64,000 nt of DNA from Candidatus Harrisonbacteria bacterium (GCA_023255625.1 JAHFLF010000001.1:185766-249765); one strand, 5' to 3'. Shown: positions 5,147-62,764, counted from the first letter of the stretch. Program-made: numbers and translations. Notes: generated by a model from the letters alone, not told the origin.

Positions 5147-5246
5147 TAATTTTCAATTTCTAATTTTCAATTTTCAAACAATGATTTAATTTCTAAATTG
5201 ATACATTGGAAATTGTTTAGAAATTAGAAATTGAGAATTGAAAATT
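5147..5246. repeat. AT-rich palindromic intergenic element (family R2), copy 1
   Basis: aattttcaatttctaattttcaattttcaaacaatg...cattggaaattgtttagaaattagaaattgagaattgaaaatt. The two arms are reverse complements. Near-identical copies at 23912-23998 and 62656-62764. Confidence 0.7.
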
Positions 5247-5607
5247 ACCTCTCTATCTTAAGTCTATTCATCCTCACCTGCCGCAGTTTATTCTTCGGCA
5301 GCATGTTAAACACGGCATACTCAACAATGCGCTCCGGGGTGCGCTTACGCATCTCCTCTACCGGCTTTTCGCGCAAGTGGCCCTGGTAACTGGTGTGATG
5401 ATAATACATCTTATCTGTCTCTTTTTTACCGGAAAACTTTACCTTTGCCGCATTCTTCACAATCACGCGATTGCCGCCAGCAAGGCGCGGCTCATACGCG
5501 GCCGAGGTCTTGCCCTGCAGAATGGCAGAAATCTTCGTGGCTAAGCGGCCAACGATTTGGCCCTCTGCATCAATCACAAATTCTTTTATCTTTTCTTTTG
5601 TTTCCAT
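5245..5607 (-). CDS. rplM: 50S ribosomal protein L13
   Basis: VIDAEGQIVGRLATKISAILQGK...MYYHHTSYQG... is the L13 core. Start at the second Met (METKEK) is preferred; the ORF extends to 5634. Confidence 0.9.
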   Translation of the reverse strand: METKEKIKEFVIDAEGQIVGRLATKISAILQGKTSAAYEPRLAGGNRVIVKNAAKVKFSGKKETDKMYYHHTSYQGHLREKPVEEMRKRTPERIVEYAVFNMLPKNKLRQVRMNRLKIER

Positions 5608-5655
5608 ATTTCTATTCGCGATATTACTCTTCAATTCGCGTTATTAGCGATTACT

Positions 5656-5997
5656 CTATACGAATTCAATCGTCGCCATCTTAGTTCCATCGCGCATCCG
5701 CTGAACAGCATGCTTACTAATCCGCAGATAACCGCCGGTGCGATCCTTATACTTCGGTGCAATCTCATAAAAAAGTTTTTCAGCCGCCCCCTTCGGCAGA
5801 TTTGCCAGAAGCATACGCAGCTTGGCAACCTGGCCCGTTTTTGCATAACTAATATAGCGTTCAACCAAAGGCCGAATGTCTTTTGCCCGCGCCTCGGTTG
5901 TAACCATCTGCCCGTACATAATCAAACTGGTCGCAAGTTGTTTGCGAAAAGCTCGACGGCGTCCGGTGGTTCTGGCAAATTTTCTTTGGGAAACCAT
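5656..5997 (-). CDS. rplQ: 50S ribosomal protein L17
   Basis: RKFARTTGRRRAFRKQLATSLIMYGQMVTTEARAKDIRPLVERYIS... has L17 family features. Position after rpoA matches the alpha operon. Confidence 0.9.
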   Translation of the reverse strand: MVSQRKFARTTGRRRAFRKQLATSLIMYGQMVTTEARAKDIRPLVERYISYAKTGQVAKLRMLLANLPKGAAEKLFYEIAPKYKDRTGGYLRISKHAVQRMRDGTKMATIEFV

Positions 5998-6001
5998 AAA
6001 T

Positions 6002-6070
6002 TCAGTTAGTCAGTTAGTTGGTTAGTCAGTTAGTTGGCGGGATGATTTTCGGTTTTAGCTGACTAACTTT
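6002..6070. repeat. GTTAGTTRG micro-repeat hairpin (family R1), copy between rplQ and rpoA
   Basis: ttcagttagtcagttagttggttagtcagttagttggcgg...ttttagctgactaactttttt. Inverted arms gttagtcag / ctgactaac. Confidence 0.6.
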
Positions 6071-6071
6071 T

Positions 6072-7509: not shown

Positions 7510-7512
7510 GGA

Positions 7513-7612
7513 ATTAGTTACAAGTTTTAAAGTTTATCAAGTTGTAAAGTTGGGGAATGCGTCATCTTGTTTTCCTTGATGAACTTGAAAAACTTGATGA
7601 ACTTTATGAACT
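7513..7612. repeat. Intercistronic repeat family R3 (AAGTTTATCAAGTT / TTGATGAACTTGAAAAACTTGATGAACTT), copy 1
   Basis: agttacaagttttaaagtttatcaagttgtaaagttgg...ttgatgaacttgaaaaacttgatgaacttt. Arms are partly reverse-complementary. Copies at 8069-8170 and 20666-20768. Confidence 0.65.
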
Positions 7613-7613
7613 C

Positions 7614-8066: not shown

Positions 8067-8068
8067 GG

Positions 8069-8170
8069 GTTTAGTTACAAGTTCTTCAAGTTTATCAAGT
8101 TATAAAGTTGGAACGATTTCATCCGGTTTTTCATTTGCTTGATGAACTTGAAAAACTTGATGAACTTTTT
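8069..8170. repeat. Intercistronic repeat family R3, copy 2
   Basis: gtttagttacaagttcttcaagtttatcaagttataaagttgg...cttgatgaacttgaaaaacttgatgaactttttac. Confidence 0.65.
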
Positions 8171-8171
8171 A

Positions 8172-8555: not shown

Positions 8556-8557
8556 GA

Positions 8558-8652
8558 TCAGTTGGTTAGTTACTTAGTTAGTTGGTTAGTTAGCAGATTC
8601 GGGGTTCTTGGTTTTTACAAACTAACTAGCTAACCAAGTAACCAATTAACTT
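8558..8652. repeat. GTTAGTTRG micro-repeat hairpin (family R1)
   Basis: cagttggttagttacttagttagttggttagttagc ... aaactaactagctaaccaagtaaccaattaac. Imperfect inverted arms. Confidence 0.6.
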
Positions 8653-8659
8653 ACCCGCC

Positions 8660-8773: not shown

Positions 8774-8880
8774 GATGATTTAACTGGTTACTTAGTTAGC
8801 TGGTTAGTTTGTTAGTTAGCGGGTTCAGGTTTTTGGTTTTTACTAACTAACCAACTCACTAACTAACCAAGTAACTCCTA
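8771..8880. repeat. GTTAGTTRG micro-repeat hairpin (family R1)
   Basis: ggttacttagttagctggttagtttgttagttagcgggttcaggtttttggtttttactaactaaccaactcactaactaaccaagtaac. Long imperfect inverted repeat. Confidence 0.6.
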
Positions 8881-9096: not shown

Positions 9097-9238
9097 TGAT
9101 TGGGAAAGTATACTCGATGAGGAAAAATATGTCAACCAATCAGTAATCGCTAACACGCGAATACAGACAAATACACGAATAGAATCTTGGGTTCATTTGC
9201 GTATTAGTCTTGATTGGCATGTTCGCGATTACTGTTGA

Positions 9239-10948
9239 TTACTGAATTATCACGGCAATCTTATCTAAATCAGACGGCACGGTATGCACATAAAATGGCT
9301 TGAGCGTAACTTTGCCGCCGCTAATTCCTTCAATCGCAAACACGAGCGCATTGAGTTGTGTATCCGGTTGACCGGCCAGTTTCTGGGCGATGTCGACAGC
9401 AGAAACAATCCGCGACAGCGAGACATCGTACTTAATAGGAACTGACATTCGGCCGGAGCCAAGAGCAATCGTCTTTGGATTTAGGGTACCGTAAACTAGA
9501 GTATCGCTGTCTACCTTAAAATCTTTACCAATCGCGTTTTTTAAGCGCTGCGTCAGTAGTAGTCGTAAATCACTTTCTCGGAAAGCCAGAATGCTTAACT
9601 GTGCTTCAGTAACCACGCCGACAGTTCCGTCGCTAGCCGAGACCGATTCAACGACCTGCTTGAGTACCGTTACCTTGGTCGCGCCCGGCAAAACCTTAAA
9701 CTCCGCAGGCACGCTACCGGCTATTTTCTGCTGCAACTGCTCGGTAACAGTTTTTATCCCCTGTTCTTTCGCGGCAACAACATCTTTTTCAGTCGGCACA
9801 CTCGTCTCGCCAACAAACCCGCCGCTGGCGCCTTCTTTGAGCTCGCCGTAAAAACCATCATATTTGGGCGTTTTCAAAAATCCAGGAATCGTCAATTTGG
9901 CCGTCTGGCCCAAATTAGCTTCGGCGCCGGGTTTATCTGCAACTACGGGGACCGAAATTGTCGATGGTATAATCTTGCCATTTTCAATTTTTGCACCAGG
10001 AATAATTAACGGACTGGCAGTTCTAAAGATAATTCCCGCTGGAGTTACAAAACGAGTATTAGCAACAATGCTTTGCGGCTGCGAACTGTAACCGTTGTAA
10101 ACGGTTAAATTAGCCGTCGCCTTGATACTGACATATTTTTTACCGGTAGCCGGTACGCGTTTTGTAAAGCTATCTCGCACAACAAAAATCTGTCCCGGCG
10201 CACGGCTGCCAGATTCATCAATGCTCGTCAGGGCCTTATCAATGCCGATTGAACCATCGAAGCTCCAATTTTTTTTCTCGGTTACCACCGTTATCTCTGC
10301 GTGCGGTAAAACAGCGGCGGCCACATACGAGACGATTGCCAGTCCGACAATTATCGCGCCGGAAATTAAAAATAAAATTTTACGGCGGGAGCGCCGGTTT
10401 GGGCGGATTGGTTCACCTTGTGTCCGGCGCATAACATCGCTTTTAGTAGCTCTGGCCGGCGCGGCTTGAATGAAACTCACATCCGGCTCTGCACTATCCC
10501 CATCAGGAGTCAGCTCGTTCTCCGGTTCTGAATCACGCGAAACTCTCCGAGAAGCAGCCGGCTCTGCCCGACTCCGAGTCGCGCGACGCGGCCGCTCTTC
10601 ATTTTCTGGAACAACTTGGACGCGTACTGAACGACTCCGGCCGGCCCTCGGCTTCGCTGATTTTGTGCCAGTTGCCCCATCATCCCCAACCACCGCCTGC
10701 TCTATGATACCCAGGCCGGATCTGGCGGCGCGCTCGCGAATGCCAAGATCGGTAGTTTCAATAATGACCTCGCGTTTGAGAAGAGAGGCCTCGCGTTTAA
10801 GTAATTTAAAATTATTCAGCAGCTGGCCAAAAATTGCGCCGGGAGCAATCTCAAAAATAACCTGCTCGGACTCGGCGTCAATTAATTGCTCAACAACGAA
10901 GGCGACATCGTCGCTGCGTTTTACAGAAATATGAATTGGTTCAGCCAT
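9239..10948 (-). CDS. Hypothetical protein with Arg/Ser-rich disordered region, single TM anchor and large beta-rich extracytoplasmic domain
   Basis: 569 aa. RAGRSRSVRVQVVPENEERPRRATRSRAEP... is low complexity. ILFLISGAIIVGLAIVSYVAAAVL is a TM segment. No family recognised. Confidence 0.5.
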   Translation of the reverse strand: MAEPIHISVKRSDDVAFVVEQLIDAESEQVIFEIAPGAIFGQLLNNFKLLKREASLLKREVIIETTDLGIRERAARSGLGIIEQAVVGDDGATGTKSAKPRAGRSRSVRVQVVPENEERPRRATRSRAEPAASRRVSRDSEPENELTPDGDSAEPDVSFIQAAPARATKSDVMRRTQGEPIRPNRRSRRKILFLISGAIIVGLAIVSYVAAAVLPHAEITVVTEKKNWSFDGSIGIDKALTSIDESGSRAPGQIFVVRDSFTKRVPATGKKYVSIKATANLTVYNGYSSQPQSIVANTRFVTPAGIIFRTASPLIIPGAKIENGKIIPSTISVPVVADKPGAEANLGQTAKLTIPGFLKTPKYDGFYGELKEGASGGFVGETSVPTEKDVVAAKEQGIKTVTEQLQQKIAGSVPAEFKVLPGATKVTVLKQVVESVSASDGTVGVVTEAQLSILAFRESDLRLLLTQRLKNAIGKDFKVDSDTLVYGTLNPKTIALGSGRMSVPIKYDVSLSRIVSAVDIAQKLAGQPDTQLNALVFAIEGISGGKVTLKPFYVHTVPSDLDKIAVIIQ

Positions 10949-15078: not shown

Positions 15079-15146
15079 AAAAAGGTGGCTGTGTAATTTT
15101 TCGGCAAACGGGGTTCTATTGCCGAAAAATTACACAGCCACCTTTT
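15079..15146 (-). terminator. Intrinsic terminator (27-bp perfect stem hairpin with flanking T/A runs) downstream of clpB; potentially bidirectional
   Basis: aaaaggtggctgtgtaatttttcggcaa-acggggttctat-tgccgaaaaattacacagccacctttt. U-run follows on the minus strand (ttttctcgtttcg). Confidence 0.75.
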
Positions 15147-17887: not shown

Positions 17888-17980
17888 AGAGTAATCGCTA
17901 ATATTCTAATAGCTAATAACGCTAATAAAAACTAAAGCGAATTCGCATTATTCGATATTCGCATATTAGCGAACACTCGG

Positions 17981-19246: not shown

Positions 19247-19318
19247 GCGGCGGGCATTTTGGTTTTTGCAGCCATCCCGTAGGGTGGGCCCGGCTGCAAA
19301 AACCAAAATGCCCGCCGC
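19247..19318. repeat. Long perfect hairpin, family R4 copy A (27-bp stem, conserved 18-nt loop)
   Basis: gcggcgggcattttggtttttgcagcc-atcccgtagggtgggccc-ggctgcaaaaaccaaaatgcccgccgc. Directly 3' of the cysteine desulfurase gene. Confidence 0.8.
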
Positions 19319-19324: not shown

Positions 19325-20611
19325 CTATTGTTTTATAGATGATAACACGGTTAAGACCCGATCAATCTCTGCATCCGTTGTTAGCCGCCCCAAACTAAAA
19401 CGAATACTATTTTTAGCCCGGGTGCGGTCAAAGCCCATCGCAAGTAAAACATGCGAGGGGTCAATGGACCGGGCGGAACAGGCCGAGCCGGAAGAAACGG
19501 CTATACCTGCCAGGTCGAGCGCTACAAGCAGCTGCTCCCCTGACCGCCGAGGAATAAAAATATTAAGATTATTTGGAAGTCGACCTTGTGCGCCTCCGTT
19601 AAGTACTACACCGGGGAAAATAATTTTATTTCCTTTAAAAAGCTTGTCGCGTAATTTGGCGATTCTTTGAAATTCTTTTGAGCGCAGTGCCGATGCAATT
19701 TCCACGGCCTTAGCAAATCCGACAATCGCCGAGACATTCTCTGTACCGCTGCGAAGGCCGAATTCCTGACCACCGCCAGTCAGGATAGTGAGTAGTGAGT
19801 AGTGAGTAGTGAGTAGCTTTGAGGCAGGGACGCGACGGGCATACAAACATCCAATACCTTTTGGGCCATAAATTTTATGCGCAGAAAGCGTCATCAAATC
19901 AACTCCGAGCGCATCAACATTGCAGTCTAAATACTGAAAGGCCTGAACCGCATCAACATGAAGGAGAGGATAGTTACTTGGTTGCTTAGTTAGTTGGTTG
20001 GTTGGTTGAGAGGCGCGAAAATCGTTAACGATTTTCGCGATTTCTGCGATTGGCTGGACCGTCCCAACTTCATTGTTAGCGTACATAACTGAAACTAGTA
20101 CAGTCCGCTCGTTCAGCGCAGCTTTGAGTTTTTTTAGATCAACAATGCCTTCCCTTGAAACTGGAATAAGCACTACATCCACTCCGTCTTTTTCTAAATC
20201 ACGCGCCGTCTCTAGCACCGACTCATGTTCAATCGCGGAAATAATTAGGCGAGGTATGAATTTTCCATTCTTCATTCTTAATTGGTCATTCATCATTTGC
20301 TTTACGCTCCCGCGTAAAGCAAGATTATTCGCCTCTGTCGCACTCCCCGTAAAAATAATCTCGCTGTAGTGCGCACCGATAGCGCCGGCAATCGTCTGCC
20401 TTGGCTTAAATACCGCCGCACTCGCTGCTTGCCCAAATGAATGCAAAGACCCCGGATTTCCAAAGCTGGTTGCTTGGTTAGTTGGTTGCTTGGTTAGTTG
20501 GTTGGGAAACGATGCGCCAAACCACGGCAGCATGGCTTCAAGCACGCGCGGGTCAAGCGGAGTGGTGGACGCGTAATCAAGATAAATTCTTTTTTGCTTC
20601 ATAAAGCTCAT
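19325..20611 (-). CDS. Cysteine desulfurase (IscS/NifS family, PLP-dependent) carrying three in-frame repeat-derived insertions
   Basis: SAHKIYGPKGIG (PLP Lys), HVDAVQA, GGGQEFGLRSGT, SSGSACS. Extra segments PNQLTKQPTNQATS, SQPTNQLTKQPSNYP and LLTTHYSLLTIL are encoded by GGTTAGTTGG / AGTGAGT micro-repeats. Confidence 0.85.
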   Translation of the reverse strand: MSFMKQKRIYLDYASTTPLDPRVLEAMLPWFGASFPNQLTKQPTNQATSFGNPGSLHSFGQAASAAVFKPRQTIAGAIGAHYSEIIFTGSATEANNLALRGSVKQMMNDQLRMKNGKFIPRLIISAIEHESVLETARDLEKDGVDVVLIPVSREGIVDLKKLKAALNERTVLVSVMYANNEVGTVQPIAEIAKIVNDFRASQPTNQLTKQPSNYPLLHVDAVQAFQYLDCNVDALGVDLMTLSAHKIYGPKGIGCLYARRVPASKLLTTHYSLLTILTGGGQEFGLRSGTENVSAIVGFAKAVEIASALRSKEFQRIAKLRDKLFKGNKIIFPGVVLNGGAQGRLPNNLNIFIPRRSGEQLLVALDLAGIAVSSGSACSARSIDPSHVLLAMGFDRTRAKNSIRFSLGRLTTDAEIDRVLTVLSSIKQ

Positions 20612-20665: not shown

Positions 20666-20768
20666 ATTAAGTTTTTAAAGTTCATCAAGCAGAAAGTTAT
20701 CAAGCAAGAAATTTCCGCCCCTTCATTCCCACTTGAAAAACTTGATGAACTTTAAAACTTGATGAACT
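20666..20768. repeat. Repeat family R3, copy 3 (upstream of fur)
   Basis: aagtttttaaagttcatcaagcagaaagttatcaagcaag...cttgaaaaacttgatgaactttaaaacttgatgaactcc. Confidence 0.6.
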
Positions 20769-20772
20769 CCCC

Positions 20773-23255: not shown

Positions 23256-23330
23256 GCCGCGCCTGAAATTGCATTTTACAGCCATTCGCTTGCGATGAGC
23301 CCGGCTGTAAAATGCAATTTCGGGCGCGGC
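23256..23330. repeat. Long hairpin, family R4 copy B (28-bp stem, conserved 19-nt loop)
   Basis: cgccgcgcctgaaattgcattttacagcc-attcgcttgcgatgagccc-ggctgtaaaatgcaatttcgggcgcggc. Confidence 0.8.
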
Positions 23331-23911: not shown

Positions 23912-23998
23912 AAATTTTCAATTTCTAATTTTCAAACAATGATTTAATTTCAGAATTTCTAAATTGGAAATTGTTTAGAAATTGAAAATTGAAAATTA
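23912..23998. repeat. AT-rich palindromic element family R2, copy 2
   Basis: aattttcaatttctaattttcaaacaatgatttaatttcagaatttctaaattggaaattgtttagaaattgaaaattgaaaatt. Over 85 percent identical to copy 1. Confidence 0.7.
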
Positions 23999-24591
23999 AT
24001 GAACCAATGGACACTATTGTCCTCGACATCGAAACCAAAGACATGTACGGTGGGGCATCGGGAAAAATAATTTCCGACCTCTCGCCGTCTTTTGTTGGAA
24101 TTTATTCATATTCTGGAAATAAATATTCTGGCTATTTTGAAAGTGATTTCCCTGACCTAAAAAAACTGTTGAGCGAACCGGCACTCTTAGTCGGCTTTTC
24201 TTCAAATCGGTTTGACCTGCCGATTTTAAGCCGCGTACTGAATCTTGTTTTTGATAAGCATCCGAAAGTAGACCTTTGCGAAGAACTGGAAATACGCACC
24301 GGCCGGCGGGTTGGTCTGAATACGCTCGCCCTCATCAATCTGGGCAAAGGCAAAACCGGCGCCGGGCTGGATGCTCCACAACTTTTCGCCGAAGGAAAAC
24401 TTGAAGAGCTCAAAAGCTACTGTCTGAATGATGTGCAACTCACAAAAGAACTATATGACTTAATTCGTACAAAAAAAGAATTAAAAATCCCAAAGCAAGA
24501 AAGTGTCTTTTCAAATCAGCTCGGACTTTTTGAAAAAGATAAGCTAGAAAAAGTAAAAATAGATTTGGGGCCATTACTAACTTTCATATAA
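23989..24591 (+). CDS. DEDD-family 3'-5' exonuclease (DnaQ/RNase T/RNase D-like)
   Basis: TIVLDIETKD (Exo I DxE), FSSNRFDLPIL (Exo II), YCLNDVQLTKELY (Exo III Y-x3-D). Confidence 0.6.
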   Translation: MKINEPMDTIVLDIETKDMYGGASGKIISDLSPSFVGIYSYSGNKYSGYFESDFPDLKKLLSEPALLVGFSSNRFDLPILSRVLNLVFDKHPKVDLCEELEIRTGRRVGLNTLALINLGKGKTGAGLDAPQLFAEGKLEELKSYCLNDVQLTKELYDLIRTKKELKIPKQESVFSNQLGLFEKDKLEKVKIDLGPLLTFI

Positions 24592-24600
24592 TGAACCCTG

Positions 24601-24674
24601 CGCGGTGGCAATATGTTTTTGCCAGCCATTCGCTTGCGATGGGCCCGGCTGGAAAAAACATATTGCCACCGCGC
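24601..24674. repeat. Long hairpin, family R4 copy C
   Basis: cgcggtggcaatatgtttttgccagcc-attcgcttgcgatgggccc-ggctggaaaaaacatattgccaccgcg. Confidence 0.8.
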
Positions 24675-24726
24675 CCCCATTCGTACTCCTGCCTACCGGC
24701 AGGCAGGTTCGTAAAAAATTCGTAAT

Positions 24727-24804
24727 TCACGAGCCATCAGTTTGCATTTTGAAGCCATCCCGAAGGGTGAGCCCGGCTTCAAAATGCAAACTGATGGCTC
24801 GTGA
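24727..24804. repeat. Long hairpin, family R4 copy D (30-bp perfect stem)
   Basis: tcacgagccatcagtttgcattttgaagcc-atcccgaagggtgagccc-ggcttcaaaatgcaaactgatggctcgtga. Confidence 0.8.
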
Positions 24805-24884
24805 TTAAATCCGGGTATAAAAAAGCGGGGCCTCGACATGCGTCTTGGCCCCCATTCCCGGATTGTGCGCCGGGGCGCTGCGAG

Positions 24885-25058: not shown

Positions 25059-25270
25059 GGTCTCCTCCACCCACCGCCACAAAACGGGCGGCAGAATTGA
25101 CCGTTCCCTCCCAGCGCACGCCGGGAAGACCAAAAATAGTATGTTCCTTTTTATTCGCTTGTCAAGCATCTAAAAAAATGGTCTTGGCTCTTTACTGCAC
25201 AATCCAAAAAAGTAGTATACTGATTTTGTCATGGGCTTAGACCTTTGTCCGAAGAACGGGAGGTGCGGGA

Positions 25271-25471
25271 ATGTTGAGGATGCAGAATGAATACTGCAGG
25301 AATTGTCTTTCAACCCAGCGGTTCCTGGACCTCGGCGCGAGTCTCGTGTGCGAGCGCTGCACGGCGCGCCTGTACAGAGTCGCGGATCGCCCAGCGCCGC
25401 ATCCAGAAGGCCAGATCGCCGCCGTGAGGGCGGTGCCGGAGAGCTTGCTTCGCGAACGCGAAGCTGGCTGA
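25271..25471 (+). CDS. Small Zn-ribbon-like protein (66 aa, CxxC-x17-CxxC) in GC-rich island
   Basis: MLRMQNEYCRNCLSTQRFLDLGASLVCERCTARLY... SD GGGAGGTG upstream. Terminator gcgagtccggc...gccggactcgc + T-run at 25470-25515. Divergent from the small TM gene. Confidence 0.4.
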   Translation: MLRMQNEYCRNCLSTQRFLDLGASLVCERCTARLYRVADRPAPHPEGQIAAVRAVPESLLREREAG

Positions 25472-25526
25472 CGAGCAGCGAGTCCGGCCTCCCGTGGGAA
25501 GCCGGACTCGCACTATTTTTATCTTT

Positions 25527-28630: not shown

Positions 28631-28793
28631 AAAACACTCAAAGTTGTATAGTAGAAATGTAGGTCCCCTGCACGGAAAAATACCGAGGATCCGTAAAGGG
28701 CATGGCAACTCAAACCGGTGAAAGGAGTCGACCGACCAAAGAGCCGTGAGTTCGTTCTGACCTTGTTCTGACCAGTCCACACACGGAGGTTCG

Positions 28794-29018
28794 ATGCCCA
28801 TCGACGACGATCGTGATCGCGCTACCTGCCTAGTGCTCCTTGCCTATCGCGTGCTGCTTGCGTGTAGGAAAAAGGGGTACAGAGGTCCGCTACTCATGAC
28901 GGAATCGATGGACCGCGCCTGGTACTACCACCTGGGAGCGAAGCGGGCTCTCTTCGGAGAGTTCGAGTCAGCGGTGATGGAGGAAGTCTTCCAAGCACTG
29001 CATCTTCGCTACAAGTAG
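28794..29018 (+). CDS. Hypothetical small protein (74 aa) in GC-rich segment
   Basis: SD acggagg 6 nt upstream. Possible TTGGAT-18-TATAGT promoter at 28625-28653 gives a ~134-nt GC-rich leader. No similarity recognised. Confidence 0.3.
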   Translation: MPIDDDRDRATCLVLLAYRVLLACRKKGYRGPLLMTESMDRAWYYHLGAKRALFGEFESAVMEEVFQALHLRYK

Positions 29019-29164
29019 TATATCCGGGCGCACCGGCCCTGTGCGATATCGTGGAGCGCCACAACCGCCGATGGCAATCAGGCGCCAACCGCATAGCTGG
29101 TACTGGTCCACATTCCAGCCGGCGAACCCCTTGCGGGATTCGCCGGCACCAAACTCTACTTTAA

Positions 29165-29458
29165 ATGACAAAACGCAATTGGAATAACGATAAGACAAAT
29201 GAACTGGTCGGCGCGCTTCTCTCGTTAAAAAACGCGACCGACATGAAAAGTTTTTTACGCGATCTACTCACCGAGGATGAAATTATTGAATTTGGAAAAC
29301 GCTGGGAGGCGGCCCGCATGCTGGCTGCCGGCGTTCCCTACTCTGAAATAAGCAAAGCCGTTGGCCTCTCGTCCCGCACCGTGGCACGGGTGGCGCAGTG
29401 GTTTCACGCCGGCAAAGGCGGCTACAAACTCGCCATCGGCTCACTCAAAAGAAAATAA
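29165..29458 (+). CDS. TrpR-like YerC/YecD-family DNA-binding protein
   Basis: LLTEDEIIEFGKRWEAARMLAAGVPYSEISKAVGLSSRTVARVAQWFHAGKGGYK matches the YerC/YecD (TrpR-related) family pattern. Confidence 0.7.
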   Translation: MTKRNWNNDKTNELVGALLSLKNATDMKSFLRDLLTEDEIIEFGKRWEAARMLAAGVPYSEISKAVGLSSRTVARVAQWFHAGKGGYKLAIGSLKRK

Positions 29459-29496
29459 TCTCCTGCTTTACAATTCAGTTAAATTGTTAAGTACCC

Positions 29497-29528
29497 TTGA
29501 CGCTAGCACTTTACTATAGTAAAGTGCT
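29497..29528 (+). promoter_or_regulatory. Promoter-like -35 TTGACG overlapped by a perfect 24-bp palindrome AGCACTTTACTATAGTAAAGTGCT (CIRCE-like operator)
   Basis: Self-complementary 29505-29528. Half-sites TAGCACT / AGTGCTA with 9-nt spacer resemble CIRCE TTAGCACTC-N9-GAGTGCTAA. Confidence 0.5.
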
Positions 29529-29649
29529 ATTTATGACTGTTTTCACAACACAACTGCATCATCTGCATACCGATACCCTCCCCGGGAGTGGTTTGTGTTG
29601 ATTGAGTAGTTACGCTTACAAATAGCGCACACGAATAGAATCAACCCAA

Positions 29650-29700
29650 TCCCCTCCTGAAAACTCCGGCGCGTCGCCGGAAAACTGGGAGGGGTTTTGA
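29650..29700 (+). terminator. Leader-embedded intrinsic terminator/attenuator 25 nt upstream of the 29719 CDS
   Basis: cccctcc-tgaaaactccggcgcgtcgccggaaaactg-ggagggg-ttttgattt. An upstream ccctcccc (29572-29579) could form an alternative antiterminator. Confidence 0.5.
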
Positions 29701-29718
29701 TTTGGGAAAGGCAAGGCA

Positions 29719-34194: not shown

Positions 34195-34215
34195 TTGTGC
34201 TATAATACAATAAAG
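34195..34215. promoter_or_regulatory. Overlapping divergent promoters (extended -10 TGcTATAAT for + strand receiver gene; TTGCCT-17-TATTAT on minus strand for prfA-like gene)
   Basis: cattgtgctataatacaataaagcatgctgttaggcaacaaacATG. Minus-strand reading gives ttgcctaacagcatgctttattgtattat. Confidence 0.4.
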
Positions 34216-34235
34216 CATGCTGTTAGGCAACAAAC

Positions 34236-34654: not shown

Positions 34655-35071
34655 ATGGTACTAATGCAACGAATGAATACTAATCAGACAACTCAAAAAT
34701 CTGAACTTCTGTATCCTCAACTTTCATTTACTATTGTCGGTGTACTTTTTGACGCCCATAATGAGCTCGGGCCCTATGCCAGAGAAAAACAATACGGCGA
34801 TAGCATCGAGGCAAAATTTAAGTTTGCAAAAATACCCTATCGACGAGAATGCGCTATTGGAACATCCACAAATATAGCTGATTTTATTATCAATGATTTA
34901 ATATTGATTGAACTAAAAAGTAAGCGACTCCTGTTGCGAGAAGATTATGAACAAACACAGCGCTACTTGCAGGCAGGAAATTTACGCCTTGGCTTACTGG
35001 TGAATTTCCGGAATAAGTATTTGAAACCTGTTCGCGTTGTTAAAATAGATAGCCCTCATCGTAACTATTAG
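34655..35071 (+). CDS. GxxExxY-family protein (PD-(D/E)xK nuclease-like fold)
   Basis: ELGPYAREKQYGDSIEAKFKFAKIPYRRE...ADFIINDLILIELKSKRLL...YLQAGNLRLGLLVNFRNKYLKPVRVV matches the family pattern along its length. Confidence 0.65.
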   Translation: MVLMQRMNTNQTTQKSELLYPQLSFTIVGVLFDAHNELGPYAREKQYGDSIEAKFKFAKIPYRRECAIGTSTNIADFIINDLILIELKSKRLLLREDYEQTQRYLQAGNLRLGLLVNFRNKYLKPVRVVKIDSPHRNY

Positions 35072-42884: not shown

Positions 42885-43095
42885 ATACTCCGCGGGGAGT
42901 ATTGGTAAAACGACAATTATCTCCCCTTTCGGGACCGAATTAGCACTTACTGCGGTTTTGCCGCAGAGTTGCTGGTGGTTAAGGGCCGGTTGCCCATGCC
43001 CAGTCGTGAGTTTCGCTCTACGCCGGGACCTGCCACGCTCTTGATAACTTATTTAGTTGTGTTTTCATTATATAATATATCGGTAAAAACGCAAT
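42885..43095 (-). ncRNA. Candidate structured non-coding RNA or riboswitch-type leader (about 185 nt; own promoter and intrinsic terminator)
   Basis: Minus-strand TTGCGT-16-TATAAT promoter (43067-43094), GC-rich core (rc of 42935-43060, contains cccGAAAggg GNRA hairpin and cugcggCAAAAccgcag), terminator tactccCCGCggagta + UUUUUU at 42885-42905. No match to RNase P/SRP/tmRNA motifs. Confidence 0.35.
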
Positions 43096-46124: not shown

Positions 46125-46215
46125 TCGACTTCGGTATGACGCGGCGCTGCAGCTCATAGGGAGCACTAAAAGGTATCCGTGCTCATCTTGAGCGGCAGTG
46201 CCGCGTCATGCAAGC
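46125..46215 (+). terminator. Large nested inverted repeat between kinase and receiver genes (terminator/processing structure)
   Basis: atgacgcggcgctgcagctcat...(gagcac/gtgctc inner hairpin)...atcttgagcggcagtgccgcgtcat. Followed by extended -10 TGcTATAAT at ~46228-46240. Confidence 0.45.
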
Positions 46216-48664: not shown

Positions 48665-48784
48665 GATAAAGGGATTAGAGGGATTAGCCGTGGTATACTT
48701 TCAAAAAGCCGTTCTTTAATCTATAGCGCTAGAAGCTTCTAGCAACTTCTAGCCGCTTCTATCACATCTAATCCCTCTATCCCC
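48664..48784. repeat. Repeat family R5 (CTAGAAGC/GCTTCTAGCAACTTCTA palindromic units), copy 1, with embedded extended -10 TGGTATACT
   Basis: gggattagagggattagc...gctagaagcttctagcaacttctagccgcttcta...ctaatccctctatcccc. Outer inverted repeat plus a 16-nt perfect palindrome gctagaagcttctagc. Confidence 0.6.
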
Positions 48785-50494: not shown

Positions 50495-50614
50495 TCGAGA
50501 GCTACGAATAACGAATCATTTCGCGAAAGTACGAATTGACTACTTGAATTATCTGATATACTTAGCAGTAGGTTTTGTTCGTACTTTCGTAAAACATTCG
50601 TAATTCGTAGATCT

Positions 50615-51826: not shown

Positions 51827-51840
51827 CCGTATTCGCCAAC

Positions 51841-52407
51841 ATGCGAGTTCAAACCGAGACACTAAAAAAACGACATTGTTTTTATTCGCGTATTTGCGTA
51901 AATTCGCATGTTCGCGATTACTGCCGAGGATTCAGTCTAATCGAGATGCTGATCGTCATCGGCATCATCGCAATAGTTGGAACCGGCGGTGCGCTATACC
52001 TGGGCAATAATGATCCGGGCATTCGGCTTGAGAGAACAACCAGCCGAGTTGTAACTTTTATTCGAAATGCCCAGCAAAAGGCAACAAATCAGGAAGAAAA
52101 TGTTCGCTGGGGCGTCTATGTTGATAACCTGGACTCAAGCCAGCCGACATTGTCCATTTTCAAAGTTGTTGAAGAACTTGCTGCTGATCCTGACCACGAC
52201 GGAATTGATGGACTCTCGATGGAGCGGATCATCCTCTCCGGCAACCTACAGCTGCTGACACCTGCGAGCGGAACATCTTCAGATATTCTTTTTGCAAAAG
52301 GAACTGGTCTGCCGGAAACCCCAAGAACAATTGTGATTGCAACTGCTGACAGCCAAATCCAAAAAACAATCAGTATTGACGGAAACGGCCGCATCGACAG
52401 CCAATAA
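51841..52407 (+). CDS. Prepilin-type N-terminal domain protein (minor pilin/pseudopilin-like); start uncertain
   Basis: GFSLIEMLIVIGIIAIVGTGGALYL is the class III signal core. The unusually long leader if ATG 51841 is used suggests an unrecognised downstream start. Confidence 0.55.
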   Translation: MRVQTETLKKRHCFYSRICVNSHVRDYCRGFSLIEMLIVIGIIAIVGTGGALYLGNNDPGIRLERTTSRVVTFIRNAQQKATNQEENVRWGVYVDNLDSSQPTLSIFKVVEELAADPDHDGIDGLSMERIILSGNLQLLTPASGTSSDILFAKGTGLPETPRTIVIATADSQIQKTISIDGNGRIDSQ

Positions 52408-57060: not shown

Positions 57061-57067
57061 TCTTCAC

Positions 57068-58390: not shown

Positions 58391-58495
58391 ATGATACTAG
58401 AAGCTGCTAGATGCTACTAAAGATGCTGCTAGTAGAATAAAATTCTAATTCGTATCCCCTAGCAGCATCTAAAACTTCTAGCAACTTCTATGGAT
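58391..58495. repeat. Repeat family R5, copy 2 (nested palindromes gatgctgctag/ctagcagcatc, tagaataaaattcta)
   Basis: ctagatgatactagaagctgctagatgctactaaagatgctgctagtagaataaaattctaattcgtatcccctagcagcatctaaaacttctagcaacttcta. Shares the 15-mer cttctagcaacttcta with copy 1. Confidence 0.6.
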
Positions 58496-58906
58496 TGCCT
58501 CTTCTGCTCTATCATCGCCAAAAATATTCCTAGTAAGATCGTCTACGAAGACGATCAAACACTCGCCTTTTTAGATATCCAGCCACTCGCCGCCGGCCAC
58601 ACCGTGATTGTGCCAAAGCATCACGCAGACCGCATCGCTGCTCTACCAGAAGAATTCGCCGGCCCGCTCGGATTGACGGTCAGGCGAGTTTCTGATATCT
58701 TACATAAATCGCTGGCACCGGAGGGATTTACTATTGGTATCAATGATGGGGTTGGCGCTCACCAAGGAGTCGGCCACCTGCATATCCATGTTATCCCCCG
58801 CTGGCTCGCTGATCAAGGCGGCAATCTGCACAGCATCATCAAAAACCCGCCAACCATGTCTCTCGACGAAGTCGCAAAAAAACTAGCAGCTTCTAGCAGC
58901 ATCTAA
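58490..58906 (+). CDS. HIT-family (histidine triad) nucleotide hydrolase
   Basis: CLFCSII...AAGHTVIVPKHH...GVGHLHIHVIPR (HxHxHxx motif). Confidence 0.85.
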   Translation: MDCLFCSIIAKNIPSKIVYEDDQTLAFLDIQPLAAGHTVIVPKHHADRIAALPEEFAGPLGLTVRRVSDILHKSLAPEGFTIGINDGVGAHQGVGHLHIHVIPRWLADQGGNLHSIIKNPPTMSLDEVAKKLAASSSI

Positions 58907-58935
58907 TACCTCTAATTACTAATTCCTCTACCCCT
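58873..58935. repeat. Repeat family R5, copy 3
   Basis: aactagcagcttctagcagcatctaatacctctaattactaattcctctacccc. Overlaps the 3' end of the HIT gene. Confidence 0.5.
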
Positions 58936-59160: not shown

Positions 59161-59269
59161 TACTATGATTACCAAATTTACAAACATCTGCAGCCGTCGT
59201 GCGGCCTCACAATTCGAGGTCGTCTTCGAGTGTTTGTAATACTGATTTACTAAATCTACGAACTTTCCA

Positions 59270-59302
59270 AAGCGGCCTCGAGTACAGGCCGCTTTGCGTT
59301 TA
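59270..59302 (+). terminator. Intrinsic terminator after rpsU (agcggcct-cgagtaca-ggccgct + ttgcgttt)
   Basis: 7-bp GC-rich stem followed by a T-rich run. Confidence 0.5.
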
Positions 59303-59364
59303 TCGGAGAAGCTAGCGTAGAAGAATAAAAAAACAAGGTTCGCCCTGCGGGGCAAGGAGGAGAG

Positions 59365-59823
59365 ATGTCGAAGCAAACACTGACTGTCGTAACCGAGCTC
59401 AAGCTCGGCAGAGTAACCAGGGCGCATGTGGCGTCCGTCGAGCAACTCCGCGCGAATCGCGAAGAGGCCTGCAGCTACTCTCGCCTGCTCATGCCGAGGC
59501 AGATCAGATGGTCGCTCGGGACAATCCAAATCGTCTGCGCTACCGCCGAAGAAGTTCAGGGTATCGGCGTTGGTGTCTGGGAGGCGGTCGCGGCGGCGAC
59601 ACTGCTCGATCAGAAGGAGGATCTCCTAGAAGTTTACTTCTGCCCGCCAAAGGCGGAGTGGGAGGAGATCACCTTCATGCCCCTGGATCAGTGCGACAAG
59701 CGTGCTGTCGTATCCTTGGTCACAATATATCGTCGAGAACCGCGCAGGAACCGACGATGCCTATATCTACGCCCCTCTGTACCACGACTGCGCAAGGAAC
59801 AACTCTTCGCGGTTCGTATCTGA
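59365..59823 (+). CDS. Hypothetical protein (152 aa) in GC-rich insertion between rpsU and argH
   Basis: Perfect SD aaggaggagag before the ATG. GC-rich codon usage. No family recognised. Confidence 0.45.
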   Translation: MSKQTLTVVTELKLGRVTRAHVASVEQLRANREEACSYSRLLMPRQIRWSLGTIQIVCATAEEVQGIGVGVWEAVAAATLLDQKEDLLEVYFCPPKAEWEEITFMPLDQCDKRAVVSLVTIYRREPRRNRRCLYLRPSVPRLRKEQLFAVRI

Positions 59824-59898
59824 CCGGGCAAGAACACGCACCATTGGAGTCGGCCGCTGAGGCGACCGACTCCAAGGAAAGATAAATTAATAACATCT

Positions 59899-61212
59899 AT
59901 GAAAAAACTCTGGCAGAAAAATTGGCAACTCAATAAAGCAGTAGAAATTTTTGAAACGCAAGACGACATCGCCCTTGATAGCTTTATTGCTCCTTTTGAT
60001 ATCTTAGCTTCAATTGCCCACGCAAAGATGCTTTCCAAAATCGGAATTATCACTCAAATAGAATATAAAAAACTGTGTGCTGGCTTAACAGAAATCCAGA
60101 CTCTTGTTGACACCGGAAAGTTTAAGCTAAAAATTGGCGATGAAGACATACATACAAAAATTGAAAACTTTTTAACGAAACGCTATGGCACGGCCGGCAA
60201 GAAAATTCATACCGGTAGGTCTAGAAATGATCAAGTGCTAACGGCATTACGACTGTTCATGATAGACGCCTTACTTGATATACATACACAAACCTTGGAT
60301 CTTGCCGCTGCATTTGTAAAAATTGCTAAAAAATACGAATTTGTGCCAATGCCCGGCTACACCCATATGCAAAGAGCGATGCCTTCATCTGTTGGTGTCT
60401 GGCTCGGCAGCTTCACAGAATCACTCCTCGATGACGCAAGCGCAATTAGCGCGGCTATTACCCTTATTAATCAATCCCCGCTCGGCTCTGCCGCGGGCTA
60501 CGGTGTGCCGCTTAAACTGAATAGAGAGATGACCGCAAGGTTGCTGGGCTTCGATCGAATACAAGCAAATGTGCTCTACTGCCAAAACTCAAGAGGCAAA
60601 CTCGAAGCGGTTGCGCTCGCAGCGCTCGTGAACATATTAAGCACCGTCAACCGGTTCGCAAACGACCTCCTACTCTTTACTACAAAAGAATTTGATTTTT
60701 TCTCGCTGAACGATAGTCTTTTTTCTGGCAGCAGCATCATGCCGCAAAAACGGAATCTTGATCTCGCGGAGCTTCTGCGTGCAAGTGTCAAAAAAGTTTT
60801 GGCAAATTACACGCTTGTCGCCAACCTCCCGCTTGATCTCATGTCAGGATATAATCGAGATTTGCAGGATTGCAAAAAACCAATCATCGAGAGCATGATC
60901 ACTACTAAGCAATCTCTTAAAATGATGCAACTGCTTATCCATTCTCTAAAACCTAATCAAAAGAAGCTCACAGGTGCATGTTCAAAAGAAATATTCGCAA
61001 CGCATGCAGCGCTCAAATTAGTTAAGCGCGGTTCATCGTTCAGAGATGCATATCGTATAGTCGCTGGCGGGATTGAAAACCTGGACAGTATCAATGTCGA
61101 AATGATTCTACGCGAGAGCACACACACGGGCGCAACAGGAAATCTGCAGCTTGGGAAACTTGCTCAGAAAATAAGGGAAAAACAAAAAATATTGCTACGC
61201 AATAACAAATAA
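59899..61212 (+). CDS. argH: Argininosuccinate lyase (fumarate-lyase superfamily)
   Basis: TGRSRNDQVLTALRL and GSSIMPQKRNLDLAEL (lyase signature, with Gln as in ArgH rather than the His of PurB). Confidence 0.8.
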   Translation: MKKLWQKNWQLNKAVEIFETQDDIALDSFIAPFDILASIAHAKMLSKIGIITQIEYKKLCAGLTEIQTLVDTGKFKLKIGDEDIHTKIENFLTKRYGTAGKKIHTGRSRNDQVLTALRLFMIDALLDIHTQTLDLAAAFVKIAKKYEFVPMPGYTHMQRAMPSSVGVWLGSFTESLLDDASAISAAITLINQSPLGSAAGYGVPLKLNREMTARLLGFDRIQANVLYCQNSRGKLEAVALAALVNILSTVNRFANDLLLFTTKEFDFFSLNDSLFSGSSIMPQKRNLDLAELLRASVKKVLANYTLVANLPLDLMSGYNRDLQDCKKPIIESMITTKQSLKMMQLLIHSLKPNQKKLTGACSKEIFATHAALKLVKRGSSFRDAYRIVAGGIENLDSINVEMILRESTHTGATGNLQLGKLAQKIREKQKILLRNNK

Positions 61213-61226
61213 CGTACAATATCATC

Positions 61227-61706
61227 ATGGAAACACCAAGCAAATTACCAGCCATCGTTAAGGTGAACTTGCAGCAAGCTAATGCTATCTTCCAAGAATA
61301 TACACACGAGCCGGTACTTAATTACGAGACGGCTGCAAAAGTTTCTGCGCGGCTCGGCATCACCGGAACCGAAAGTAAATGTCTTTTTGCGAAGACGAAA
61401 TCAAATCGCTATTTCATGCTTGTGACAACCCAAGAAACTCGGGCAGATTGGAAAGCACTCAAGCAGCTCACCGGCGAATCATTATCGATGTGTTCTGGCG
61501 ACGAGCTGCTGTCGGTAACGGGATATGTTCCCGGCTGTGCAGGACCCTTCGCTCTTCCTGCGAGCGTAATCGTTATTGCTGATTCAAAGATATTTACTCT
61601 AGAAAAGTATGTCTTTTCCGGCGGCATACCGGAAATAACGCTAGTCATTTCCGGGGCGGATCTCAAGAAAGCAATTGATATTATTCCGAGGCATCTTATT
61701 CTATAA
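61227..61706 (+). CDS. ybaK: YbaK/ProX-type aminoacyl-tRNA deacylase (Cys-tRNA(Pro) editing domain)
   Basis: TGTESKCLFAKTKSNRYFMLVTT...SGDELLSVTGYVPGCAGPFAL. YbaK family pattern with a conserved Lys. Confidence 0.7.
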   Translation: METPSKLPAIVKVNLQQANAIFQEYTHEPVLNYETAAKVSARLGITGTESKCLFAKTKSNRYFMLVTTQETRADWKALKQLTGESLSMCSGDELLSVTGYVPGCAGPFALPASVIVIADSKIFTLEKYVFSGGIPEITLVISGADLKKAIDIIPRHLIL

Positions 61707-61817
61707 GTAGACAGAGCATGCCTGAATTGGTATCATTCGCATTATTCAGTAATCACTAACACACTAATCAATACCGAATGCGCGAATGAATCTATTAGCA
61801 TATTAGCTTCAATTCGT

Positions 61818-62291
61818 ATGTTCGCGAATACTGTTATGACATTCAAAGAACAACTGATGACTGATATTAAGACCGCTATGAAGGCGGGAAATCATGAAGA
61901 ATTAACCACCTTACGCGGGCTTTCTTCGGTTATTAAAAATACAGAAATTGCCAAACAGATGAAACAGGGCGCATCGGCAACTATCACTGATGAGGAAATC
62001 ATGAATGTTCTTTTAACTGAAGCTAAAAAGAGAAAAGACGCCATCGCCGCTTTTATGACTGGCGGCCGACCGGAACTGGCCGAAGCAGAACAAAAAGAGT
62101 TGCTAGTTGTCGGCCGGTATCTGCCAAAGCAAATGTCAGCAGAGGAAACAGCAGCAGCAGTGGAGACAATTATTGCTGCTGCAGGTGCGAAAGACTTCCC
62201 GGGTGCGATGAAGGCAGTGATGGCCGAGCTCCGTGGCAAAGCAGATACCGGTGCGATCGCGGAGCAGATCAAAAAGAAATTCGGAAAATGA
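61818..62291 (+). CDS. GatB/YqeY-domain protein
   Basis: LMTDIKTAMKAGNHEELTTLRGLSSVIKN...ERRKDAIAAF...QLLVVGRYLPKQMSAEE. True start may be the Met at 61836. Confidence 0.7.
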   Translation: MFANTVMTFKEQLMTDIKTAMKAGNHEELTTLRGLSSVIKNTEIAKQMKQGASATITDEEIMNVLLTEAKKRKDAIAAFMTGGRPELAEAEQKELLVVGRYLPKQMSAEETAAAVETIIAAAGAKDFPGAMKAVMAELRGKADTGAIAEQIKKKFGK

Positions 62292-62665
62292 TCTCTGTTG
62301 CTGTTCTTGATGTGTCGGCTAAAAGGTACGAGAAAAAAATTACACATGCAGCCCACGAGCTTGTCATTCTTTTATCTATTACAAGAAAGCATGTTGATAT
62401 CCTGCTCGTTGGCGACAAGCAGATGCAAAAAAATGTTCTGGCCTTTCCGGCCGATCCTGGCTTCCCCCGCCCAGACCTAACTGAACCATCGCTTGGCGAG
62501 ATTCATCTAAACCCAACATATATTCAAGCGCATAATGAAGACTTATTACTCATGCTCACACATGGATTTCTACATCTGCTTGGCTACGATCACGAGAACA
62601 GCCGTGATAGAATAGTGATGGAGAAAAAGGAGCGAGAACTTCTCGCGAAACTGGCTAATTTCTAA
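62288..62665 (+). CDS. ybeY: rRNA maturation endoribonuclease YbeY
   Basis: LTHGFLHLLGYDHE is the H-x3-H-x5-H zinc motif. Confidence 0.8.
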   Translation: MISVAVLDVSAKRYEKKITHAAHELVILLSITRKHVDILLVGDKQMQKNVLAFPADPGFPRPDLTEPSLGEIHLNPTYIQAHNEDLLLMLTHGFLHLLGYDHENSRDRIVMEKKERELLAKLANF

Positions 62666-62764
62666 TTTAAAATTTCTAATTCCTAAACAATTTCTAATGT
62701 TTTAATTTTGAAATTTAAGCATTGAGATATTGTTTGAAAATTGAAAATTAGAAATTGAAAATTA
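62656..62764. repeat. AT-rich palindromic element family R2, copy 3 (diverged)
   Basis: aatttctaatttaaaatttctaattcctaaacaatttctaatg...cattgagatattgtttgaaaattgaaaattagaaattgaaaatt. Confidence 0.6.

Follow-up and report, generated by a model that had tools for sequence, protein, structure and literature searches.

Bacteria of the candidate phyla radiation (CPR) are held up as examples of extreme streamlining, yet about a quarter of the intergenic DNA in the stretch analysed here consists of hairpin-forming repeats with fast turnover. What are these repeats, and how did they come to lie between the genes? The stretch, called the window in the following, comprises 64,000 nucleotides of Candidatus Harrisonbacteria bacterium (GCA_023255625.1, JAHFLF010000001.1:185766-249765), a CPR bacterium of the Paceibacteria type. 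A first-pass annotation had distinguished six families of short inverted repeats (R1 to R6) and had proposed either roles at the RNA level or an active repeat-propagating mechanism. The latter is favoured by the polymorphism of gene junctions between related genomes, the overdispersed load of repeats per genome, and the presence of the same families at non-orthologous junctions. It is therefore likely, though by no means certain, that the AT-rich repeats are propagating foldback insertion elements of about 70-125 bp, which resemble miniature inverted-repeat transposable elements (MITEs) and repetitive extragenic palindromic (REP) elements and colonise the genomes of Paceibacteria-type CPR bacteria. 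The class is apparently broad and undescribed. Every element consists of two long, imperfectly inverted arms around a loop of 10-50 nt, and these arms are built from degenerate tandem units, mostly of 7 nt, in the window also of 4/8 and 9 nt. Propagation is deduced from the presence and absence of elements at orthologous junctions, from loops and ends common to dispersed copies, from insertions that are nested or in frame, from bursts in single genomes, and from termini that remained conserved despite neutral saturation.

At every position cited by the first-pass annotation the sequence holds what had been described. An einverted-type scan (match +3, mismatch -4, gap -7, loop up to 70, score cut-off 42) revealed 24 inverted repeats in the window compared to 0-2 in ten whole-window dinucleotide shuffles. 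The coding share of the window is 88% and its G+C content ~47%; the intergenic DNA, 11.5% of the total, holds 22 of the 24. The supposed intergenic location thus applies to most repeats, but not to arrays that lie in frame in a cysteine desulfurase gene and to an R6 copy that extends over the ATG of a pilin gene. When 16 elements were folded as RNA and compared with shuffles, 15 had z-scores of about -3 to -8, the lone exception being the eroded R6 copy at 61748-61833 (z -0.9). Allowing at most two mismatches, GTTAGTTRGTTAG matches 36 times in the window (1.7 expected) and CTTCTAGCAACTTCT five times (0.13 expected), and the micro-tandem structure of the arms was borne out by Tandem Repeats Finder (TRF). 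Reading, repeat search, and gap folding agree that long imperfect hairpins occupy gaps of ~75-140 nt over the whole distance between stop and start codon. The 18 AT-rich elements of R1, R2, R3, R5, and R6 (GC 0.16-0.42; Table 1) account for 2.7% of the window and for 23% of its intergenic DNA, and the five GC-rich perfect hairpins of R4 together with two further hairpins form a class apart. To call this density unusual for a streamlined genome is fair, although a census from 2026 already ranks CPR phyla highest: no other phyla reach the density of perfect inverted repeats of Ca. Campbellbacteria and Kaiserbacteria, and that of Uhrbacteria is also high (PMC13155455). That census leaves the repeats uncharacterised, and the elements in the window give a concrete sequence basis for the rank.

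The proposed families are not equally well founded. The copies of R1, R2, and R3 (3-4 per family) align in their loops as well as in their arms and must therefore derive from one another instead of being mere look-alikes. Two R2 copies that are 57 kb apart (5138-5244 and 62666-62776) are ~85% identical, loop included, and the palindrome of the first takes in the TAA stop of rplM. The third copy (23913-23997) is inverted with respect to the other two, its loop being their reverse complement. R6 also stands as a family. R5 is the weakest, because its members have only 10-16-mers in common, and the hairpin at 50495-50614 is not a clean member of R6. Two of the cited copies, 5612-5655 (R6) and 58873-58935 (R5), are not whole but half elements. 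A further R1 copy is found ~7.7 kb past the end of the window (L004 15620-15709) between the ftsZ stop and the convergent pfkB, and elements are therefore not limited to sites before start codons.

Gain and loss of elements can be followed in the alpha ribosomal-protein operon, which is located on the minus strand in the order infA, rpmJ, rpsM, rpsK, rpsD, rpoA, rplQ, rplM, rpsI. As claimed before, repeats lie between its cistrons, and they are present at seven of the eight junctions. We collected loci surrounding rpsK, 80 each from GTDB species genomes and JGI metagenomes, and located the nine operon genes in 145 non-redundant related loci with 958 junctions. The length distribution of these junctions has two peaks, the larger at 0-20 nt and the smaller at 70-130 nt. 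With a score cut-off of 30, an inverted repeat was detected in 131 of the 188 gaps of 70-150 nt, as opposed to 10 of 188 after shuffling. These hairpins have arms of ~29 nt and loops of ~21 nt, span a median of 87% of the gap, start a median of 4 nt past the stop, and end a median of 8 nt before the ATG; 22% take in bases of the stop codon. With a median of 14 nt, the unpaired flanks in filled gaps are comparable in length to native gaps, whose median is 8 nt. The upstream stop is TAA at 88% of the short junctions but at long junctions TAA in 64%, TAG in 28%, and TGA in 8% (p = 8.5e-8), and in several families the terminal TAA or TAG of the element acts as the stop of the upstream gene. Copies are gained and lost at tiny stop-to-start gaps and often supply or overlap the upstream stop. 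Frequently they end a few bases short of the next ATG, and others are found before promoters, between convergent genes, or as single arms in frame. The arms have a dominant period of 7 nt (lag-7 autocorrelation 0.376 vs 0.282; 42 of 156 spacers) and a minor one of 8 nt. Two supposed design rules were rejected. The share of spacers in which each of the three frames meets a stop codon within 45 nt from the beginning is 0.30, compared to 0.25 after shuffling, with a stop density of 0.074 vs 0.073, and a G-rich 5' arm combined with a C-rich 3' arm is not the rule (48 vs 50, no bias).

The closest species representatives are uncultured Patescibacteria (Parcubacteria/Paceibacteria group) with S11 identities of 94, 93, and 87%. 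In most relatives the junctions that are filled in the window measure 1-30 nt, for example 5, 11, and 12 nt between rpsM and rpsK (L006, L007, and L167), 17 nt between rpmJ and rpsM (L006), and 4 nt between infA and rpmJ (L007). The nearest relatives (L006, L007, L008) have other junctions filled by other families: two in L006 and one or two in L007, with sequences unrelated to those at the seven junctions of the window. Presence/absence polymorphism between related genomes, as known from MITEs, is evident in the rpsM-rpsK gap, which comprises 125 nt in L040 and 1 nt (TAA-A-ATG) in L122, while the rpsK DNA is 90% identical and the flanks are collinear. In L150, a second hairpin is nested in an arm of the first. 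Elements are concentrated in certain genomes: where 14 of the 106 genomes would be expected to lack a long junction, 42 do so, and five or more long junctions are present in 15 genomes instead of the expected 1.8. In L136 and L137 all eight of the eight junctions of the operon are taken by hairpins of four or more families. The sole operon junction without an element in the window is rpsD-rpoA; a strong promoter-like site (TTGACA-17-TATTAT, 11/12) is located at 6932-6904 (-) inside the 3' end of rpsD, before rpoA.

Clustering of the long spacers resulted in families that are present in up to five genomes, at differing, non-orthologous junctions. The best example is R6, which has a length of 86-125 nt and the consensus AGTAATCGC(G/T)AA(C/T)AATGCGAAT ... 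ATTCGCATTATT(A/C)GCGAA(T/C)ACTC. It is found in the window (four copies and the half copy), L029, L047, L056, L074, and L161, with partial or weak matches in L151 and L013 and matches to the end motifs in L121. Its ends of ~25 nt are ~90% conserved, although the S11 proteins of the R6-bearing genomes are only 52-80% identical and their four-fold sites are at random identity (synonymous saturation). R6 is conserved in sequence and not by covariation, nearly all of the 18 predicted pairs being invariant and the consensus fold amounting to -3.5 kcal/mol. Operon copies within one genome agree in orientation (34 pairs vs 2), whereas both orientations occur across genomes (71 vs 40 pairs). Most R6 copies are co-oriented with transcription, by ~10:1 in only 5-6 independent genomes; the copy at 17889-17978 has the opposite orientation to most. 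Terminal inverted repeats, small size, the lack of an open reading frame (ORF), and multiple copies are features that R6, and by their copy numbers R1 to R3, share with MITEs. A phage origin was rejected because there are no exact R6 or R2 ends among viral contigs.

Two other groups of elements in the related genomes deserve mention. Family A (L040, L123, L150, L029, L057, L084) consists of AT-rich 'ATGCAAA' heptads and has an off-centre GC mini-hairpin, whose stem varies in a compensatory way across genomes (ATCCGC/GCGGAT, TTCGCC/GGCGAA, ATTCC/GGAAT), as would a hairpin that is recognised by a protein. An element of 110-145 nt, AATCCCGTTAGA...TCTAACGGG-AT-G, is present in the infA-rpmJ gaps of L006, L013, L014, L022, and L030, and also at L014 rplQ-rplM, L014 rplM-rpsI, and L066 rpsD-rpoA. 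Its stem extends into the start codon, whose first two bases are paired. Most of its occurrences precede rpmJ, and it is possibly a truly conserved leader and not a mobile repeat.

Elements also affect coding sequence. All four arrays in the cysteine desulfurase gene fall at gaps of the alignment to solved IscS structures. One of them (19974-20008) is identical to an R1 3' arm at 18 of 19 positions, and both arrays derived from R1 arms read QPTNQLTKQP, which is their only open frame. Such in-frame insertion into a conserved ORF is also known from Rickettsia palindromic elements. The pilin gene has a single in-frame ATG, located in the left arm of the R6 copy at 51829-51922 (window 51841-51930), and this copy would encode an unusually long leader of 30 residues before G|FSLIEM. 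Two annotated starts probably have to be moved to positions just after an element: that of YqeY to 61836 (MTFKEQL...) after R6 (window 61818-61838), and that of a DEDD-type exonuclease to 24007 (MDTIVLDIET) after R2 (window 23989-24009). The elements can serve as markers for strain typing and for errors in assembly and annotation, such as these two starts and the pilin leader.

Several results weigh against propagating elements. At 106 hairpins, end repeats of 2-5 nt indicative of target-site duplication are no commoner than in permuted flanks, and the L040/L122 site is compatible with or without duplication of TA or TAA. A transposase, a REP-associated tyrosine transposase (RAYT; Y1_Tnp), a reverse transcriptase, or a gene resembling those of insertion sequences (IS) is not found among the ~60 ORFs of the window, so that the search for RAYT/IS200-like genes recommended by the first-pass annotation was negative there. 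In ~1 Mb of related loci there is no full-length IS with R6 ends, all profile matches being at most 125 nt. The 64 kb contain at least five unrelated families, and 3 kb of L136 contain four; so many unrelated families per genome strain a model with one transposase per type of terminus. In some elements one arm is a perfect array and the other is degenerate (L040, L137), and perfect arrays are also found inside the gene, from which it follows that slippage in situ contributes, after insertion or independently of it. Through template switching, a second arm may be gained or made perfect. The boundaries of the insertions are not fixed, as the collections contain no relative closer than ~90%. The search for closer relatives with empty sites (a metagenome scan with best hits of 70-86%, exact-protein look-ups of rpmJ and infA, and 90% clusters with 1-2 members) yielded none, and the variant contig L167 is too diverged to set the ends of the element. 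For 60% of the long spacers there is no detectable relative in the sample. Finally, the tolerance for elements through translational coupling, as outlined below, is deduced from geometry only.

Could the elements have arisen in place, without any transposition? Polymerase slippage would build the 7-nt arrays at any site that tolerates them, template switching at quasi-palindromes would copy or perfect an arm, and likeness between loci would result from ectopic templated repair or from transformation and recombination. The dominant 7-nt period, the perfect arrays in one arm or inside the gene, the missing target duplications, the window without a transposase, and the many families per genome all speak for this explanation. 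In addition, heptamer repeats are over-represented in some bacteria, where they have been put down to slippage (PMC4692102), and the R4-type hairpins have arms that are unrelated yet perfectly complementary around a conserved apex. However, such processes alone cannot explain dispersed copies with common loops, or termini of ~25 nt shared across loci and between synonymously saturated genomes. Neither the nested insertion, nor the clean gain of 124 nt in a gap of 1 nt, nor the discrete size class of 70-130 nt is accounted for, and we regard this origin as unlikely. A similarly low probability is assigned to palindromes that propagate in a structure- or strand-directed manner without a family-specific transposase, by hairpin-primed or template-switch copying or through one hairpin-recognising nuclease, and that target the TAA...ATG junctions of operons; in this case the hairpins might also have been co-opted as a reinitiation 'bridge' across 100 nt in organisms lacking Shine-Dalgarno sites. 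In our ranking, propagating foldback elements come before purely in-situ genesis, which in turn comes before primarily functional RNA devices.

According to the last of these, the host would have selected the hairpins for coupling of cistrons, as RNase III sites, as exonuclease barriers, or as 5' stabilisers or thermometers, and copying would be incidental. The exact stop-to-start geometry with ~8 unpaired bases before the ATG would suit such devices, as would ribosomal operons that must still be expressed with all eight junctions filled, the orientation of most R6 copies along transcription, and the plausibility of reinitiation without a Shine-Dalgarno signal. Moreover, the predicted 5' untranslated region (UTR) of clpB consists wholly of R6 and that of the fur-family gene wholly of R3. 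Strong promoter-like sites are found for infA (TTGACA-17-TATACT at 9135-9107, with R6 upstream of it) and for clpB (TTGAAT-16-TATAAT at 18008-17981). A CIRCE or CtsR operator as explanation for the R6 copy before clpB was rejected; judged by eye the arrangement does not fit, and R6 is also present in ribosomal operons. Against selected devices stand the positions, which are not conserved even at 93-94% S11 identity, the 42 genomes without any element, the near absence of covariation and the weak consensus fold of R6, the two orientations across genomes, and the copies that precede a promoter, separate convergent genes, or lie within coding sequence. In addition, the sense transcript folds worse than the antisense (mean +1.7 kcal/mol, 75 vs 47 spacers, p = 0.002). 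The weaker sense fold fits A-rich, G-poor leaders and argues against selection for an mRNA hairpin. Selection for G-U pairs in the mRNA sense was likewise rejected, the trend being opposite (190 in sense vs 275 in antisense). Rfam, searched at gathering thresholds and at E-values up to 0.5, contains no relevant family for the elements, only spurious matches to miRNA precursors. Because position is not conserved, Rfam gives no match, and R6 does not covary, the earlier suggestion of translational operator mimics, here of ribosomal-protein operators, is not supported. Functional RNA devices are thus less probable still than an origin in place, although processing or stability effects of the transcribed hairpins are possible.

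It is very improbable that the elements represent an assembly artefact or are intrinsic terminators or attenuators of the ordinary kind: location downstream of stop codons would suit terminators, but a terminator scan detected no T tract after R1-R3, R5, and R6, elements lie between co-transcribed ribosomal genes, and a canonical terminator follows after rpsI (4617-4587), while the artefact anticipated as an objection is countered by three independent assemblies, two from ENA metagenomes and one from Logan, whose contigs are 100% identical to the window, element regions included, and by hairpins of similar style in >100 metagenome-assembled genomes from many studies. The GC-rich R4-type hairpins may well be terminators. 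They are located at 19247-19318, 23256-23330, 24600-24674, 24723-24807, and also 15080-15146, and have perfectly complementary arms of 27-30 bp, unrelated in sequence between hairpins, around a conserved and oriented apex, GCC-AT-(4-bp mini-hairpin, TCGC-TT-GCGA or CCCG-nAG-GGGT)-TG(A/G)GCCC-GGC. The orientation of the apex is constant on the plus strand, irrespective of gene direction. A pair of hairpins, at 46136-46209 and at L004 19337-19408, has the common core CATAGGGAGCA(C/G)TAAAAGGTATCC(G/C)TGCTCATCTTGA and outer stems that are unrelated yet complementary, which is the same pattern of conserved apex and variable stem.

If the AT-rich repeats are propagating foldback elements, their spread would proceed by copy-and-insert, over short distances inside an operon as well as from one distant locus or genome to another. 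The machinery behind it would work without target duplication and would probably be strand- or structure-directed. At the RNA level, the elements would be passengers. Folding would bring the upstream stop and the downstream start back to ~10-15 nt from each other and would leave the G-poor bases before the start unpaired, and termination-reinitiation would still work in a host that does without Shine-Dalgarno pairing. We propose that this proximity of stop and start is the reason why elements are tolerated in ribosomal-protein operons. The bases -1 to -12 before the start codons of the window genes are indeed poor in G (6-25%), and no Shine-Dalgarno consensus stands out upstream of these genes, an SD-like motif being present in three genes only. 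Stabilisation of the mRNA by 5' hairpins, RNase III processing, and temperature-dependent opening are possible secondary effects. Two questions are raised: which process mobilises so many unrelated palindromes where genes of mobile elements are almost absent from the genome, and how can ribosomes initiate immediately behind stems of 30 bp without Shine-Dalgarno pairing?

How do the elements compare to known systems? Bacterial MITEs such as Correia/CREE, ERIC, and RUP have been reviewed (PMC3184786). The elements resemble MITEs in being ~100-150 bp long, in lacking an ORF, in their terminal inverted repeats that fold into long hairpins, and in being intergenic, co-transcribed, strain-variable in position, and diversified into several families. 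They differ from MITEs by the lack of target-site duplications and of a cognate IS or transposase in the window, by arms built from tandem units, by the many unrelated families per genome, and by the stop-to-start placement in ribosomal operons of a ~0.6-Mb genome. REP elements, including the REP/BIME (REPIN) type, are mobilised by RAYT Y1 transposases (PMC3333891). REPs are likewise extragenic palindromes in operons without target duplication, of consistent orientation and clumped among genomes; however, they are GC-rich, 20-40 nt long, and have a conserved 5' tetranucleotide of the GTAG type, whereas the elements are AT-rich, ~100 nt long, and have repeat-built arms. The elements measure 70-125 nt and end with AGTAATCGC, TAATTTTCAA, and similar sequences, and a GC-rich palindrome of 20-40 nt with a GTAG/GTGG 5' end is not found in them. 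Heptameric intergenic simple-sequence repeats are also known from cyanobacteria, where they are called short tandemly repeated repetitive (STRR) sequences. Heptameric intergenic repeats, some of them inverted, have been described in Xanthomonas (GGGAATC) and Nostoc (GGGGAYT), and slippage has been given as their origin (PMC4692102). They resemble the elements in their head-to-tail 7-nt units, from which R1 (4/8) and R3 (9) in the window deviate, in their location in intergenic and intra-operon gaps, in the fast turnover of length and sequence, and in occasional inverted pairs. Unlike them, the elements have short degenerate arrays that are systematically inverted around a loop, and the whole unit is copied with conserved ends.

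With respect to behaviour, counterparts are found in other very compact genomes. Rickettsia palindromic elements are hairpin repeats that invade compact genomes and insert in frame in protein genes. Similarly, repetitive hairpin-forming elements have invaded the mitochondria of sponges (PMC2800124). Both show lineage-specific bursts, like the elements. The cysteine desulfurase gene, however, contains only single arms and no whole palindromes, and the host is a CPR bacterium. Eukaryotic Foldback transposons share the architecture alone, namely inverted arms of tandem subrepeats and a short central loop; they are of kilobase scale, generate target duplications, and some encode transposases. Integron attC sites were rejected since by inspection the core sites GTTRRRY / RYYYAAC are not present at the ends and the elements are flanked by core housekeeping genes. 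In the literature searched, we found no account of comparable elements from CPR bacteria. Through their repeat-built arms, the stop-to-start placement in core operons of a minimal genome, and the lack of duplications and of an evident mobiliser they stand out among elements of the MITE/REP kind.

Table 1. Repeat elements and in-gene arrays of the window (IR, score of the inverted-repeat scan; z, folding z-score compared to shuffles)
Element	Position (strand)	Location and features	Evidence
R2	5138..5244 (-)	rplM-to-rpsI gap; TTTTCAA/TTGAAAA heptad arms	IR 63, z -2.95
R6, half element, left arm only	5612..5655 (-)	rplQ-to-rplM gap	nhmmer, model positions 1-44 only
R1, 5' arm truncated	5998..6071 (-)	rpoA-to-rplQ gap	z -4.16; loop and 3' arm align with other R1
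R3, 9-nt units GTTCATCAA / TTGATGAAC	7510..7613 (-)	rpsK-to-rpsD gap	IR 46, z -3.64, R3 alignment
R3	8067..8171 (-)	rpsM-to-rpsK gap	IR 66, z -6.98
R1, GTTA/TAAC 4/8-nt units	8556..8659 (-)	rpmJ-to-rpsM gap	IR 55, z -3.87
R1	8774..8877 (-)	infA-to-rpmJ gap	IR 64, z -6.48
R6	9134..9240 (-)	right after stop of 569-aa gene, upstream of infA promoter-like site	IR 70, z -7.95, nhmmer 47.6 bits
R6	17889..17978 (-)	whole predicted 5' UTR of clpB	IR 58, z -4.35, nhmmer 49.1 bits (+ strand)
R1-arm array, 16-nt unit x2.4	20467..20505 (-)	in frame in cysteine desulfurase gene, PNQLTKQPTNQ	15-residue gap in IscS
Second R1-arm array, SQPTNQLTKQPSN	19974..20008 (-)	in frame in cysteine desulfurase gene	16-residue gap in IscS
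Perfect heptad array, CTACTCA x4.4	19786..19816 (-)	in frame in cysteine desulfurase gene, KLLTTHYSLL	TRF, IscS gap
Degenerate heptad array	20266..20297 (-)	in frame in cysteine desulfurase gene, NDQLRMKNGKF	TRF, IscS gap
R3	20666..20772 (+)	divergent gap, abuts start of fur-family gene	IR 55, z -5.61, R3 alignment
R2	23913..23997 (+)	upstream of gene probably starting at 24007	IR 57, z -4.5
R5-type composite hairpin	48665..48784 (+)	before pilB; outer stem GGGATTAG, inner units CTTCTAGC	IR 44, z -5.8, motif matches
ACGAAT/ATTCGT hairpin, loose R6 relative	50495..50614 (+)	pilB-to-pilC gap	IR 69, z -5.89; missed by R6 profile
R6	51829..51922 (+)	after pilC, overlaps pilin start	IR 45, z -4.81, nhmmer 27.7 bits
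R5	58391..58489 (+)	hisS-to-HIT gap	IR 55, z -6.51, motif matches
R5, half element, C-rich arm only	58873..58935 (+)	HIT stop and rpsU leader	sequence; motif match 58890-58904
R6, eroded	61748..61833 (+)	2 nt before probable YqeY start 61836	nhmmer 39 bits, z -0.93
R2	62666..62776 (+)	ybeY-to-ftsA gap	IR 65, z -3.75, R2 alignment

Apart from the alpha operon, the window contains type IV pilus genes and many ORFs that could not be annotated. Several of its other features were noticed besides the repeats. A full-length LOOT RNA (RF03000) at 315-432 (+) scores 79.4 bits (gathering score 46.4) and is the only Rfam family above threshold across the window. A sub-threshold match to the S-adenosylmethionine (SAM) riboswitch (42914-43050 (-); 34.5 bits vs a gathering score of 44.4, E = 5.6e-4) is located within a gene-less gap of 463 nt, and further gene-less, highly structured gaps are found at 28631-29718 (1088 nt), 59161-59898 (738 nt), and 25101-25526 (426 nt). 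The region at 28-32 kb is suggestive of foreign DNA, as its G+C content is raised (0.54-0.59) and one of its genes is among the few that have a Shine-Dalgarno-like site. Release factor 2 is encoded in two frames at 33318-34254 (-), and the PCRF/RF-1 ORF starts at profile position 100, in agreement with the usual programmed +1 frameshift; the N-terminal part contains a GC-rich inverted repeat (34078-34188). Between two response-regulator genes at 34655-35071 (+) there is a small gene of the GxxExxY / PD-(D/E)XK nuclease family (TIGR04256, 59.9 bits). The GxxExxY family is often multi-copy and possibly selfish; we draw no link to the repeats.

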